64,000 bases of DNA, taken from sequence record MH719082.1; one strand, written 5' to 3'. Under the pieces are notes generated by a model. That model saw only the letters and a program-made list of their open reading frames with translations. It had not been told where the DNA came from and did no database searches. Below, piece by piece: positions 4,905 to 60,010 of this stretch; position 1 is the first letter of the stretch; the number at the start of each line of letters is the position of its first letter. The stretch is from Escherichia phage vB_EcoM_IME392. The translations under genes and the position numbers were made by a program.

Positions 4905-5032
4905 CGGATGGACGCCTGCGACCACCCGAGCCTACCCCTGCCTCACTCACTAAAGCCACTTCGGGCTTTACCTCGTTCCGCTACGCGATACGCAGGCAGA
5001 TAGCTACACTAAGTCCCCTGGAGATGGCTAGT
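4905..5032. ncRNA. structured non-coding element, copy A (paralog of 59890-60010)
   Basis: ORF-free; hairpin AAAGCC-ACTTCG-GGCTTT (4952-4969) enclosed by 7-bp helix GCCTGCG(4914-4920)/CGCAGGC(4991-4997); about 70% identical to copy B. Confidence 0.35.
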
Positions 5033-5311
5033 AAGTATCCGTTACCAGACCATGTCCAACCTAACATTGACGAAGCCAGGGACTAGGCACTCCTCGCCAA
5101 TAAGCTACATTAGGATTTATGTCCGTATTTCGAAGATAGGCCGATCGGGGAGACTATGCATTCATCTCTGCTCAACCAGGAAGCACCGATTAGGGTAAAT
5201 ACCCAAACTATCTTCTTAATGTCACTCCTCCCAGACCGCTTCGGGACTTAGCTTAAGTCTTATCCGAATAATCTGGCATCTACGACGGACCGTAGTGTAT
5301 GGAGCGTACTG

Positions 5312-5345
5312 CAATTTAACAGCCTTTTGACTCATCAAAAGAGCG
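5312..5345 (-). promoter_or_regulatory. conserved leftward promoter-like motif, copy 3
   Basis: CAATTTAACAGCCTTTTGACTCATCAAAAGAGCG inside the tRNA island. Confidence 0.4.
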
Positions 5346-5644
5346 TAATTAGGGCCCGATTATTTCACTTAGCTTCCATCCGTTCGGGCCAACACGGATC
5401 GTACATGACGTTACCGTCGTTTCAAGTCACTCGGATTATTAGTTCCCGGTGCTCATATAAAGATGGTGCCACGTAGGGAATCGAACCCTATATCAGGTAA
5501 ACGTCTAGCCGTAGACTGCTGAGTGCCCTCAGCTACCCTATCACTTAACCGAACCATCGGCAAATCTTTCACAGATACTTACACGTGATTTTCTCTGATC
5601 GGATCTGGTGATTCCTCGGAGTCGAACCGAGGAGTGGCATAATA

Positions 5645-5720
5645 TGGTGGTCCATACTGGTTTCGAACCAGTGACCAAGCGATTATGAGTCGCCTGCTCT
5701 CACCACTGAGCTAATGGACC
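5645..5720 (-). tRNA. tRNA-Met (anticodon CAU; could equally be an Ile2-type CAU tRNA)
   Basis: hand-folded cloverleaf on - strand: GGTCCAT/ATGGACC acceptor, D-arm GCTC-AGTGGTGA-GAGC, anticodon loop CTCATAA, T-arm ACTGG-TTCGAAA-CCAGT, encoded CCA. Confidence 0.8.
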
Positions 5721-6189
5721 GAACTAGATTGAGCGATAGGCTATGGAGTACCTTACCATCGGGCGTCTTTCGCTAAATAGCCCATCATGGGCTACCGCAG
5801 GGGCATGACACCTATCGCTCAAATTGGTCGGGATCGTGGCCCACGTCGGAGGATTTGCCAAACTCCCCATTATCATAGCCTAAGCTATCCAGACGGCCGT
5901 AACTACCCTGCTCCGGTACATGCGATAATGGGGACGTATCCAAAGATGTGGAGATCCCGTTAAAATATCTTAAGCTTCTCGCTATGTGTGTCCTACACTC
6001 TACCCTTGCGGGGTACCGGAGGATGAATCCGAACTTCCTGCGACCACACACGGAGGCCCTTGCAGACGTGCTTTATTGCGCTCATCCTGGCATAGCGAGA
6101 ACTTAAGATATCTATTGATGCGCACCAGATAAGTATTTCCCAAGCCATGAACTTAATCTGGGATCTTGACCTATCCAGTGCGACTTATG

Positions 6190-6265
6190 TGGTACTCCCT
6201 ACTGGATTCGAACCAGTGACCGTCGGTTTAGAAGACCGATGCTCTATCCTCTGAGCTAAGGGAGC
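6190..6265 (-). tRNA. tRNA-Arg (anticodon UCU)
   Basis: hand-folded cloverleaf on - strand: GCTCCCT/AGGGAGT acceptor, D-arm GCTC-AGAGGATA-GAGC, anticodon loop CTTCTAA, T-arm ACTGG-TTCGAAT-CCAGT, encoded CCA. Confidence 0.8.
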
Positions 6266-6835
6266 TTAACTTTAGGATGACCTCTTAGCTTACCATCGCG
6301 AAAGCTACATGGAGTGTAGTTAACGTGAACTAAGAGGTCATCATAAAATCAGTTACTGACGAATTATACTTTCCCAACCATCCACATATACTGCGTTGGC
6401 TATGTAAAGAATGCAGAACAAGCCAACGATTAAAGGATTAATCATTGTACTTCTCCATTTAATTAAGTTACCTGCTTACTGTTACAGGGACGCCGTTCGT
6501 CGCGCCAGATTACCAATTGGCGTATTAAGCCAATCTCGCCAACCGCGTAACGCCATTGGCTGGTATCACATAGGCTTGTAGCCCTCAGTCAACCTATCCT
6601 GAGGATGAAGATCAGATACTCTCTAACGGCGGGATTGATAGTCCCAGAGTACGATCTCTTTGCCATTCTCGTATGACCTAGGAGACGACTGCCCTGGTTA
6701 AGGAGACCAGACAGCTGATATGGTTTAGTTTATTTTTAATTTGAGTCCCACTCATACCTTACAGACTCAAGCACTGCAGACCACCATGAAGCCGACTCGT
6801 ACGCTAACAGTCGACACCACGGATCCATGAAACTC

Positions 6836-6880
6836 CAACAATTTAACAGCCTTTCGACTCATCAAAAGAGTGTTAAATTG
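6836..6880 (-). promoter_or_regulatory. conserved leftward promoter-like motif, copy 4 (flanked by inverted repeat)
   Basis: CAATTTAACA-GCCTTTCGACTCATCAAAAGAG-TGTTAAATTG; 10-bp inverted repeat. Confidence 0.4.
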
Positions 6881-7021
6881 TCCGCTCCCTATCACCGAGC
6901 ACTGTGATGATGGGAAAATAGGGAGCGAAGCGATTCCTAAGTTTTATCTCTTCTCTAAGTGATTAACCGTTACATACGATGTACCTTCTCGAAAGAATTA
7001 AGCCGGTATTGGCACTTCAGA

Positions 7022-7056
7022 CACTTTAACAGCCTTTCGACCGTACAAAAGAGCGG
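7022..7056 (-). promoter_or_regulatory. conserved leftward promoter-like motif, copy 5
   Basis: CACTTTAACAGCCTTTCGACCGTACAAAAGAGCGG; tandem with copy 6, upstream of tRNA island. Confidence 0.45.
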
Positions 7057-7061
7057 CGTAA

Positions 7062-58658: not shown

Positions 58659-58902
58659 GTTTCTCACCAAGATCGCGGAGGTAGTGGAACCCTTTCGTGC
58701 ACGCTATCTCGGCCAGTTTAGTTATGATAACTGCCACGATCACGAAAGGGATTAACGGCCAAAATACCGTAGCCAATGCTGTGTAGCCACCATGCTTAAT
58801 ACGGAATCTGCCAGTCACATAGGCTGCAATCGGATAAACGATGATCCCACCGATGACATAAGCAATCATCAGTCCCACGATCATATTATCAGTAAAGTAC
58901 AT
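58648..58902 (-). CDS. small membrane protein (2 TMD)
   Basis: 84 aa, two hydrophobic segments. Confidence 0.5.
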   Translation of the reverse strand: MYFTDNMIVGLMIAYVIGGIIVYPIAAYVTGRFRIKHGGYTALATVFWPLIPFVIVAVIITKLAEIACTKGFHYLRDLGEKHAN

Positions 58903-58911
58903 AATTATTCC

Positions 58912-59133
58912 TTATCTTTTCAGGACGTATTGTTTACATGGGCAATTCTTTACCTTCTTGCCAGATCCGCAGTAGCAATCTTCGTTAGCCTTACTACGCT
59001 TAATTACTTTCGGCTCTCCAGTAAACTCAGCCTCTTTCTTAGCATCCTTAGCTTTGTAATATTCCCAACTCGCCATCCAGACACCATCTAGACAGAGAGC
59101 ATTAATCTGTACGGGATTACTCCTCGTCATCAT
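58912..59133 (-). CDS. SEC-C-motif zinc-binding protein
   Basis: C-terminal CYCGSGKKVKNCPC; start at ATG 59133 after GGTGGAGG. Confidence 0.5.
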   Translation of the reverse strand: MMTRSNPVQINALCLDGVWMASWEYYKAKDAKKEAEFTGEPKVIKRSKANEDCYCGSGKKVKNCPCKQYVLKR

Positions 59134-59269
59134 CGGAGCCTCCACCCATGGCCTGCTCTTCGATTACCTGCATACAGGTAAGACATACTGGTTCGAGACC
59201 ATACTCAGACATATCGATAGGAGTCTCATCCTTCTGTTGTTTACACCAGGAGCACTTAAACTGTGGCAT
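59117..59269 (-). CDS. small zinc-ribbon protein (absent from ORF track)
   Basis: 50 aa MPQFKCSWCKQQ...CLTCMQ...; AAGGA upstream; overlaps neighbours by 14-17 nt. Confidence 0.35.
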   Translation of the reverse strand: MPQFKCSWCKQQKDETPIDMSEYGLEPVCLTCMQVIEEQAMGGGSDDDEE

Positions 59270-59450
59270 CTGTCATATCCTTAGTGATATAGTCAAACAG
59301 AATCTCTTCTCTAGATGTCCGCCAGCATTCATGGCCATCTTTCATGCAGATCAATTCGCTAGTCTCTTCATCATACTCCCAGTAACAGGAAGAAGAGATA
59401 GGACCATGAACCTGATTGTACATATGGATCATCTTTTCTTCAGTAGTCAT
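59256..59450 (-). CDS. small hypothetical protein
   Basis: start at ATG 59450 after AGGAGAAATT; motif copy 25 bp upstream. Confidence 0.45.
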   Translation of the reverse strand: MTTEEKMIHMYNQVHGPISSSCYWEYDEETSELICMKDGHECWRTSREEILFDYITKDMTDATV

Positions 59451-59474
59451 AATTTCTCCTAACAGTAGTTCTGA

Positions 59475-59509
59475 CACCTTAACAGCCTTTCGGCACCTAA
59501 AAAGAGCGG
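59475..59509 (-). promoter_or_regulatory. conserved leftward promoter-like motif, copy 11
   Basis: CACCTTAACAGCCTTTCGGCACCTAAAAAGAGCGG. Confidence 0.45.
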
Positions 59510-59510
59510 C

Positions 59511-59744
59511 CTACGAATCTTCCAGATCTACTAAGTATTCGATCTTGAGTCTGAATGGCCCCATATACTGGGTAATAGCCATAATCCTACCATTCTCCTT
59601 TTCCCATATCCATGGTGCTGGTGGCTTAGGAGTGTCCTTAGGAACATAACCCATATTGGCTAGTTTAGCTATTGCTACTCTTCCGACAGCCTTCCCACCA
59701 GCCTTAGACTGGGAGGTAATATACTCTTCAGTAACTACGATCAT
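59511..59744 (-). CDS. hypothetical protein
   Basis: 77 aa; GAGGAA RBS. Confidence 0.5.
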   Translation of the reverse strand: MIVVTEEYITSQSKAGGKAVGRVAIAKLANMGYVPKDTPKPPAPWIWEKENGRIMAITQYMGPFRLKIEYLVDLEDS

Positions 59745-59889
59745 TAATAGTGTTCCTCAACATAATCAAATAATAACTCCTAAACTAATGGACGTAGGAA
59801 CTACCGGCCCCTTATCTAATTTAACCAATTGGAGTGTAGCGGCGGCTGGCGGAGCCGCCGCGTACACGAGACTAAACTCCTCCGGAGAG

Positions 59890-60010
59890 TCTGACCTTGC
59901 CCACCCGAGCCTCCCCCTGGGATTCGCTCCCTAAAGCCACTTTGGGCTTTAACTCGCTCACCCTACGCGTGACGCAAGGTATACTACGTAGATGCCCCTA
60001 AGAATGTTGA
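59890..60010. ncRNA. structured non-coding element, copy B (paralog of 4905-5032)
   Basis: hairpin AAAGCC-ACTTTG-GGCTTT; closing helix ACCTTGC(59894-59900)/GCAAGGT(59974-59980); conserved CCACCCGAGCC and CTACGCG blocks. Confidence 0.35.

Follow-up and report, generated by a model that had tools for sequence, protein, structure and literature searches.

A duplicated module in Escherichia phage vB_EcoM_IME392 with comparative support as a structured non-coding RNA

Introduction

Structured RNAs other than transfer RNAs (tRNAs) have been described in several bacteriophages. In phage T4, species 1 and species 2 (rnaC and rnaD) are stable non-tRNA RNAs of approximately 120-140 nucleotides (nt), encoded beside the tRNA genes and presumably cut from longer transcripts. 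In phage HK022, the promoter-near elements putL and putR, one per early operon, are paralogous RNAs of approximately 70 nt with two stem-loops, alike in fold and diverged in sequence. ROOL is larger, at approximately 580 nt. Both ROOL and GOLLD are phage RNAs often found near tRNA islands; the 3' region of GOLLD is conserved, its 5' region is variable, and many of its members exceed 800 nt (bioRxiv 10.1101/2024.12.08.627333). Here, we analyzed a stretch of 64,000 nt from Escherichia phage vB_EcoM_IME392 (record MH719082.1), hereafter the window, in which a sequence-only reading had pointed to two similar loci without open reading frames (ORFs). The comparative evidence indicates that these loci, copy A and copy B, are paralogs, each consisting of a structured non-coding RNA module of approximately 190 nt that is most likely encoded on the minus strand, as are the neighboring genes.

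Phage EP_H11 (111 kb) was the only phage in GenBank with similar DNA, at 92% identity for copy A and 98% for copy B. Both phages have been assigned to an "RP13-like" group, along with SP-15, YerA41 and Carin-5, and sugar-hypermodified thymidine has been proposed for this group (PMC12686479); a thymidine modification in RP13-like phages has likewise been suggested by genome analysis (bioRxiv 10.1101/2025.03.26.645540). Terminase identity was 59% with Acinetobacter phage Ab1-TPeters and 57% with Ralstonia phage RP13. Additional versions of the module were traced via 90%-identity protein clusters of the neighboring genes, whose members came from ENA and Logan assemblies and whose contigs were fetched. 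Nine distinct versions of the core domain were thus available from the window, EP_H11 and the ENA and Logan contigs, seven of them beyond the two of the window, and all homologs belonged to one narrow clade, the RP13-like relatives of EP_H11 and IME392. Within it, L028 and L053 are B-type copies of a more divergent phage, with a neighboring protein 67-68% identical.

Results

The two loci aligned in the same orientation over 142 columns (4859-4994 with 59836-59976; blastn, 70.4% identity, E 1e-15 to 1e-16), which bears out the similarity of about 70% first noticed, and no third copy was found by blastn in the 64-kb window. The window contains exactly two occurrences of the 21-mer CTAAAGCCACTTYGGGCTTTA, located around the inner hairpin, and none of 100 shuffles yielded a match; CCACCCGAGCCT likewise occurs twice. 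The extent of about 120 bp given in the sequence-only reading describes a real core, but the similarity reaches further to the left (in plus coordinates) and includes a GC-rich hairpin: a profile of four copies, run with nhmmer, aligned the two longer spans listed in Table 1, i.e., a shared module of approximately 190 nt. The copies are separated by 50 and 61 kb on a genome of approximately 111 kb, and EP_H11 also contains exactly two. As had been stated, the loci hold no real ORFs: only short mechanical ones overlap them, and the annotation of EP_H11 has no coding sequence (CDS) over the element. The folding energy of single 146-nt pieces was ordinary on either strand (z -0.4 to -1.0), so that the claim of structure must rest on sequence comparison.

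The core of the module is a domain of approximately 88 nt, described here in the minus-strand sense and named after its closing helix, P1. This helix has 7-9 bp (8-9 bp in the core architecture described here) and was found in five different, fully complementary forms, GCCUGCG/CGCAGGC, GCCUACG/CGUAGGC, ACCUUGC/GCAAGGU, GGUUAGUC/GACUAACC and AGGUUGC/GCAACCU. The two forms of the window, GCCTGCG/CGCAGGC in copy A and ACCTTGC/GCAAGGT in copy B at the DNA level, lie where they had been placed by the sequence-only reading, and its argument that closing helices which differ and yet remain complementary reflect selection on structure is upheld and reinforced by the seven further versions. The first element inside P1 is a conserved junction, CGCGUA. 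It is followed by a long irregular rod, P2, whose outer stem of 3-5 bp covaries (GCA/UGC, GGGU/AUCC, GGAU/GUCC, GAGCA/UGCUC) and leads to a tandem G·A loop (2x2 GA/GA), then to a covarying 2-bp step (GC/GC, AC/GU, GU/AC) and to a 4x4 purine loop in which GAGG faces GNGA. The hairpin P3 combines a 7-bp stem, UAAAGCC/GGCUUUA, with a CNAAGU loop and shows one compensated pair in L020 (AAGGCC/GGCCUU). Finally, a conserved G-rich single strand (GGG..GGCUCGGGU..), which reads GGGGNAGGCUCGGGUGG and in one genome GGGACUGGCUCGGGUCUG, returns to P1.

Pairing was evaluated by counting standard pairs in A3, a hand-curated, N-padded alignment, where 92.9% of cells were paired, as against 33-46% when the 3' partners were slid by 1-3 columns. 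Changes on both sides affected 15 of the 23 pairs, and none of 500 shuffles attained the observed values. Covariation in an alignment of related phages, proposed at the outset as a check, was indeed present. A covariance-model search had been proposed as well: model R1, built from A3, returned just two full-length copies for each genome and no further match, but no Rfam family was matched. In the sequences compared, the helices are maintained by compensatory change while the unpaired nucleotides remain constant.

Toward its 3' end, the module comprises a hairpin, H4, and a GC clamp hairpin, H5. H4 is small (UCCGG-AGGA), and its core stem reads AUCC/GGAU in copy A and L028 and CUCC/GGAG in copy B, with one compensated pair. 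The sequence of H5 is wholly different among A, B and L028/L053, yet it always pairs, and H5 of copy B shows five compensated pairs against L028/L053. No intrinsic terminator was recognized: GC hairpins are present but no T-run follows them, and the terminator scan returned 0 sites in either region. In the 7-nt loop of H5 of copy B (59847-59853), an exact reverse complement was observed, with UGGCAGA in EP_H11 and UCUGCCA in the other copies compared (L021, L022/L023). This inversion is a flip of the hairpin loop at the DNA level and suggests an absence of selection on the loop sequence itself.

The RNA most likely corresponds to the minus strand. In the covariation-supported helices, minus-strand G·U outnumbered A·C by 11:2 in the B 5' helices (see below) and by 8:0 in the P1 domain (19 to 2 overall). 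The consensus fold of the B 5' part reached -87.6 kcal/mol in sense vs. -75.9 kcal/mol in antisense, i.e., approximately 12 kcal/mol better on the minus strand (alifold), and the ORFs flanking both loci all lie on this strand. Taken together, these three observations make a minus-strand RNA a better explanation than an RNA of the plus strand or a site in duplex DNA. The hairpin AAAGCC/GGCUUU of the sequence-only reading is present in both copies but had been written in the plus-strand sense, and the blocks CCACCCGAGCC and CTACGCG, which are conserved, are plus-strand images of the unpaired minus-strand G-rich strand GGCUCGGGUGG and of the junction CGCGUAG.

A structured DNA site had been put forward as the alternative to an RNA. 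Such a double-stranded site (packaging signal, recombination site or protein-binding palindrome) would be compatible with helix conservation alone, inverted repeats being strand-symmetric, and the exact inversion of the GC-hairpin loop between EP_H11 and the others is itself a DNA-level event. However, a duplex inverted repeat is expected to pair symmetrically, and both the asymmetry of G·U over A·C and the weaker antisense fold speak against this; the G·U pairs would be mismatches on the plus strand or in a cruciform. Moreover, the irregular rod needs its non-Watson-Crick loops, the fold leaves the conserved elements single-stranded, and the element lies within transcription units. We consider a DNA site very improbable.

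Each locus has a conserved non-coding stretch of approximately 450 nt, inside a minus-strand operon, with the module at its 3' end. At the A locus, the 270 nt from a promoter-like motif (see below) to the module are almost invariant in six loci, with variable flanks, and two substitutions in the predicted 9-bp helix UUGGCGAGG/CUUCGUCAA convert G·U to A-U or G-C. At the B locus, the stretch begins after the stop codon of a 56-amino-acid (aa) gene, and the full 440 nt from this codon to the clamp are conserved, even in L028 and L053. For its 5' part, RNAalifold predicted 88 pairs from eight sequences, 17 of them compensated. A 14-bp helix among them reads AUAGCUGCUCUUCC, AUCUAAACCUACC or AUCAAUAUUUACC on one side, three wholly unlike sequences that are each matched by a complement of their own. 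The whole copy-B stretch outfolded 100 of 100 shuffles, with a minimum free energy (MFE) z of -3.8. The B locus displays 88 + 23 supported or predicted pairs and a single tentative pseudoknot, in which the lead-in (GCUAU/UCUAC/UUUAU) would pair with the junction (GUAGC/GUAGG/AUAGA) through two covarying pairs; this candidate and the outer P2 pairs are in competition, and it is not upheld in L026.

Two peculiarities of the P1 domain were observed among the relatives. Both copies of the ENA NODE_11 genome (L015 and L020) carry GGGACUGGCUCGGGUCUG in the G-rich strand, and both window copies carry GGGGNAGGCUCGGGUGG. Such matching variants within a genome point to gene conversion between the paralogs or to co-selection for a common partner; the pattern is not universal, sample SRR32678520 having the variant in A and not in B. 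In L026 (6465-6554), a B-type copy, the entire P1 domain is swapped for a very different sequence, and the 330 nt upstream and the downstream hairpins are identical to those of other copies. The new P1 3' arm, GACUAACC, is also able to pair with the invariant downstream UUAGUC, and the swap could represent a recombination footprint or an alternative pairing.

Known families were searched with Rfam 15. No family overlapped copy B at E<=10, copy A gave chance-level matches only (CC1840 at 21.7 bits, for a gathering threshold of 50, and miRNA models), and the four homologous loci, including the divergent L028 and L053, gave nothing over the RNA. The unmatched families include tRNA, ROOL, GOLLD, group I and II introns, RNase P, tmRNA, 6S, riboswitches and ribozymes. 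ARAGORN and Rfam RF00005 called only tRNA-Met and tRNA-Arg and neither of the two loci, which agrees with the initial statement that the element is not a canonical tRNA. The small RNA family then suggested holds good as a structured, non-tRNA RNA family; it is, however, not a free-standing RNA of 120 nt, but the core of the ~190-nt module.

Distant homologs were equally sought. Exact-pattern scans of IMG/VR with three conserved blocks yielded chance matches only, and no relative of the 263-aa neighbor of copy A or of the large terminase was found there. In JGI metagenomes, an invariant 19-mer matched 21 loci, all of them "VEDEGIV"-type coding sequence and non-homologous. No match to the module was found in E. 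coli genomes, and none to R1 in the first 50 kb of Ralstonia phage RP13 or in Ab1-TPeters, the closest other genus, where a search with filters off on the syntenic tRNA-flanking region gave a best score of 10 bits (E 0.35). This region of Ab1-TPeters (L011, 18936-20170) contains tRNA-Arg, tRNA-Met and then approximately 1.2 kb with tiny predicted ORFs only. It shows motifs reminiscent of the module, GAUCCGGAAGGAUU and GCUCGGGAUGG, which are not collinear and are undetected by R1 (7.9 bits, E 1.4). Elsewhere in Ab1-TPeters (L012, 14135-14446), a group I intron was detected at 66 bits (Rfam gathering 50); its span covers CDS0113 entirely and extends over the 3' end of CDS0112 and over intergenic DNA in the deposited annotation, so that its true host gene may be unannotated.

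Several identities were considered and rejected. A sponge of the CsrB/CsrC type does not fit, as GGA is not enriched (11 in A and 9 in B vs. 9.4 and 8.3 expected from shuffles). Regarding a tRNA mimic, the D, T and anticodon arms are missing from the interior, and only some copies have a 3' CCA. In the G-rich strand, a G-quadruplex would miss its fourth G-tract in L020, and pairing of this strand with the upstream CCUCUC is disrupted in the same sequence. The few 9-mers shared with E. coli M1 RNA, the RNase P RNA, stand in a different order, with no Rfam match, and were attributed to chance. As to a riboswitch, the conservation is aptamer-like, but there is no terminator, and a spacer of 90-175 nt, less conserved than the RNA, separates the module from the ribosome-binding site (RBS).

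The P1 domain might also be the core of a ligand-sensing aptamer or a self-cleaving ribozyme. Variable helices around invariant junctions and loops are typical of both, and copy A precedes a glycosyltransferase-like gene in a group proposed to have sugar-hypermodified thymidine (PMC12686479). Yet neither a U-tract terminator nor an alternative pairing over the RBS was seen, copy B precedes an unrelated 77-aa gene, and no Rfam riboswitch or ribozyme was matched at E<=10, which leaves this reading unlikely in our view.

The transcriptional context is marked by a 46-nt motif, present in 12 copies in the minus-strand gene blocks of the window, with the sense consensus CCGCTCTTTT-N6/7-TCGAAAGGCTGTTAAA-N-TG and its own 7-bp hairpin, UCUUUUG/CGAAAGG. 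Ten of the 12 copies sit 10-60 nt upstream of an RBS and start codon (ATG), and the motif is probably a phage early or middle promoter. Such promoter-like motifs recur approximately every 1 kb; the third copy is immediately upstream of the copy-A stretch, and the fourth precedes the tRNA island. A sequence resembling the motif, AAAAGCTGTTTAAAGTGTCG, was seen in Ab1-TPeters (L011, ~19505), and several independent Logan assemblies end at repeats of the motif.

Both copies of the module lie in operons of early or replication genes, and the replication block headed by copy A includes a helicase (679-2319). The genes directly downstream of A and B are mutually unrelated, and both are devoid of a promoter-like motif. 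The spacer from clamp to start codon, of 90-175 nt, is less conserved than the RNA. Because no U-tract follows the clamp and the next gene has no promoter motif, read-through past the clamps into this gene is likely. Such an arrangement would suit a cis-acting leader, which would control the promoter-less next gene by processive antitermination, as put does in HK022, or by stabilizing or processing the downstream mRNA. Both copies are indeed situated in operons, upstream of genes lacking the 12-copy motif, read-through is expected from a clamp without a U-tract, and two paralogous RNA elements in two early operons reproduce the layout of putL and putR. On the other hand, the two downstream genes are unrelated, the RBS stands far beyond the clamp in the less conserved spacer, long-range antitermination seems needless with promoter-like motifs about every 1 kb, and neither the size nor the fold recalls put. 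A leader function is possible, without being the explanation that we favor.

The same context can be read in terms of replication. By analogy with ColE1 RNA II or the R-loops of T4 oriF/oriG, a structured, promoter-driven transcript would form a lasting hybrid and prime DNA synthesis at two origins located about half a genome apart. Copy A, which has its own promoter-like motif and heads the replication block, the spacing of the copies (50 and 61 kb on ~111 kb) and the conserved G-rich strand, reminiscent of the G-rich segment of RNA II, would agree with this. By contrast, copy B has no promoter of its own, neither an AT-rich unwinding element nor iterons were seen beside either copy, and GC skew tracks gene orientation and not these sites. 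An RNA-primed origin is thus a quite unlikely explanation.

Regarding tRNA genes, approximately 340 nt separate copy A from tRNA-Met, which lies upstream of it, and this interval contains tRNA-like remnants; no tRNA occurs within several kb of copy B. At the position of the remnants, the related genome L015 has a different, intact-looking tRNA. Within the promoter-driven tRNA island, tRNA-Arg is flanked by ORF-poor segments of approximately 470 nt (5721-6189) and 570 nt (6266-6831), which may harbor more non-coding RNAs; in the tRNA-Arg-flanking region, EP_H11 has an extra tRNA-Gly (L009, 49826-49901) that was not found in the window by ARAGORN. Elsewhere in the window, a 28-nt inverted repeat (52061-52122; TTAAGCACTAAATAAATGGGACTCACTC/GAGTGAGTCCCATTTTTGTG) with T/A runs on both sides marks the meeting point of the plus and minus gene blocks, which run toward each other. 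This repeat probably acts as an intrinsic terminator in both directions, a hint that canonical terminators are employed at other sites of the phage.

Table 1. Features of the two loci and of their surroundings (window coordinates, except for the last two lines).
Feature	Coordinates	Strand	Evidence	Remarks
Module, copy A	4851-5039	-	nhmmer four-copy profile, 188.9 bits, E 1e-56, full model	~190 nt; 5' lead-in, P1 domain, hairpin H4, GC clamp H5
Module, copy B	59828-60020	-	nhmmer, 173 bits, E 9e-52, full model	~190 nt
P1 domain, copy A	4912-4999	-	model R1, 76.1 bits, E 2e-17, full length	closing helix 4914-4920 with 4991-4997; junction CGCGUA; rod P2; hairpin P3; G-rich strand GGGGUAGGCUCGGGUGG
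P1 domain, copy B	59893-59981	-	model R1, 84.4 bits, E 1e-19	P1 = 59894-59900 with 59974-59980
Hairpin P3, copy A	4951-4970	-	sequence reading	UAAAGCC / loop CGAAGU / GGCUUUA
Hairpin P3, copy B	59932-59951	-	sequence reading and A3 pair counts	loop CAAAGU
Hairpin H4, copy A	4895-4911	-	sequence reading	CCAUCC GGUA GGAUUGG
Hairpin H4, copy B	59869-59892	-	sequence reading	AGACU CUCC GGA GGAG UUU AGUCU
GC clamp H5, copy A	4856-4888	-	sequence reading	~13 bp; no U-tract
GC clamp H5, copy B	59832-59868	-	sequence reading	no U-tract
5' part, copy-A stretch	5040-5308	-	alignment of six A-type loci	nearly invariant; helices CGCUCC/GGAGUG, GAAGAUAG/CUAUCUUC (5208-5215/5132-5139), UUGGCGAGG/CUUCGUCAA (5092-5100/5067-5075)
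5' part, copy-B stretch	60011-60257	-	RNAalifold	four long rods (~60191-60240, 60109-60189, 60071-60106, 60011-60070) and a small hairpin
46-nt motif, copies 1-6	2854-2899, 3840-3885, 5305-5350, 6832-6877, 7015-7060, 7073-7118	-	repeat search	
46-nt motif, copies 7-12	7678-7723, 8702-8747, 55674-55719, 56749-56794, 59468-59513, 60865-60910	-	repeat search	
Gene downstream of copy A	3889-4680	-		263 aa, glycosyltransferase-like
Gene downstream of copy B	59511-59744	-		77 aa
tRNA-Met	5645-5720	-	ARAGORN and Rfam	
tRNA-Arg	6190-6265	-	ARAGORN and Rfam	
tRNA-like remnant	5464-5538	-	not called by ARAGORN or Rfam	75 nt, ending in T-arm UAGGGUUCGAUUCCCUA and CACCA
Isolated T-arm	5606-5634	-	not called by ARAGORN or Rfam	3' end CCUCGGUUCGACUCCGAGGAAUCACCA
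Copy A in L015	9676-9762			ENA NODE_11, same assembled genome as L020
Copy B in L020	6464-6553			ENA NODE_11, same assembled genome as L015

Discussion

On the comparative evidence presented here, the module is a real, previously uncatalogued structured RNA with strong support. As for its role, the explanation that we prefer, with about as much doubt as confidence, is a processed, stable non-coding RNA acting through its conserved unpaired nucleotides. The RNA would be transcribed along with its operon and then trimmed or protected at the GC clamp, which would shield a 3' end made by processing. It would then persist as a stable species; both the transcript ends and this stability are what we infer. 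The invariant junction, the G·A rod, the hexaloop and the G-rich strand would constitute a binding or active surface common to both copies, and the putative partner shared by them may be a protein or another RNA. In this, it would be akin to other structured RNAs that phages encode beside tRNA islands.

Several points weigh against this reading or qualify it. Copy B has no promoter of its own and must share the transcript of the two preceding genes; an intrinsic terminator is lacking in both copies, and the module may simply be part of an mRNA leader. Single-sequence folding of the copy-A stretch is unremarkable (MFE z -1.3). Homology between the 5' parts of A and B could not be demonstrated: model R2, built on B-type rods 1-2, misses copy A, blastn reached only E=3, and common motifs are limited to GUCUGGGARGAG and CAUUAAG. 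The duplicated unit is therefore the 3' module of approximately 190 nt only, and not one 450-nt family. Alignment A3 was fitted by hand to the structure, despite which the P1 arms stand at fixed distances from the invariant blocks. Lastly, as the homologs come from a narrow clade, the compensatory changes represent few independent events.

A bolder proposal, which we put forward only tentatively, sees in the 88-nt P1 domain the core of a new functional RNA class, be it a ribozyme, an aptamer that senses a ligand or protein, or a module for assembling a large RNA particle; it would be used twice in the early operons of a phage lineage with proposed sugar-hypermodified thymidine. If so, the active or binding site would be built from the conserved junction, the G-rich strand and the tandem G·A rod. 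Few RNAs are as poorly understood as the large, strongly structured ones of phages, ROOL and GOLLD among them, to none of which a function has been assigned. In this respect, the module offers clear covariation support and a modular build, with a shared 3' module on two different 5' bodies, and EP_H11 and IME392 are cultivable E. coli phages, which makes experiments feasible. Moreover, the RP13-like phages are poorly annotated, nearly all genes around the module being "hypothetical," and gain one more feature with it.

Comparison with Known Systems

By context, ROOL and GOLLD are the nearest kind, being phage-encoded RNAs of several hundred nucleotides with extensive pairing. The module is nonetheless a member of neither family, as neither Rfam model was matched at E<=10. 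Its stretches of approximately 450 nt are smaller and less knotted, mostly a row of rods, and copy B is not near tRNAs. Species 1 and 2 of T4 resemble it, by their general description and not by comparison of sequences, as non-tRNA RNAs beside phage tRNA genes, but here the second copy is far from such genes. The analogy with putL and putR of HK022 lies in the presence of two paralogous structured RNA elements in two early operons; the module is, however, larger, at approximately 190 nt, has a closed multi-element domain, and its copy B is not promoter-proximal. Finally, riboswitch aptamers and small ribozymes share with it a P1-closed domain of approximately 90 nt, in which the helices covary and the nucleotides of junctions and loops are invariant; it differs from them in that no expression platform is recognizable and no curated class was matched.

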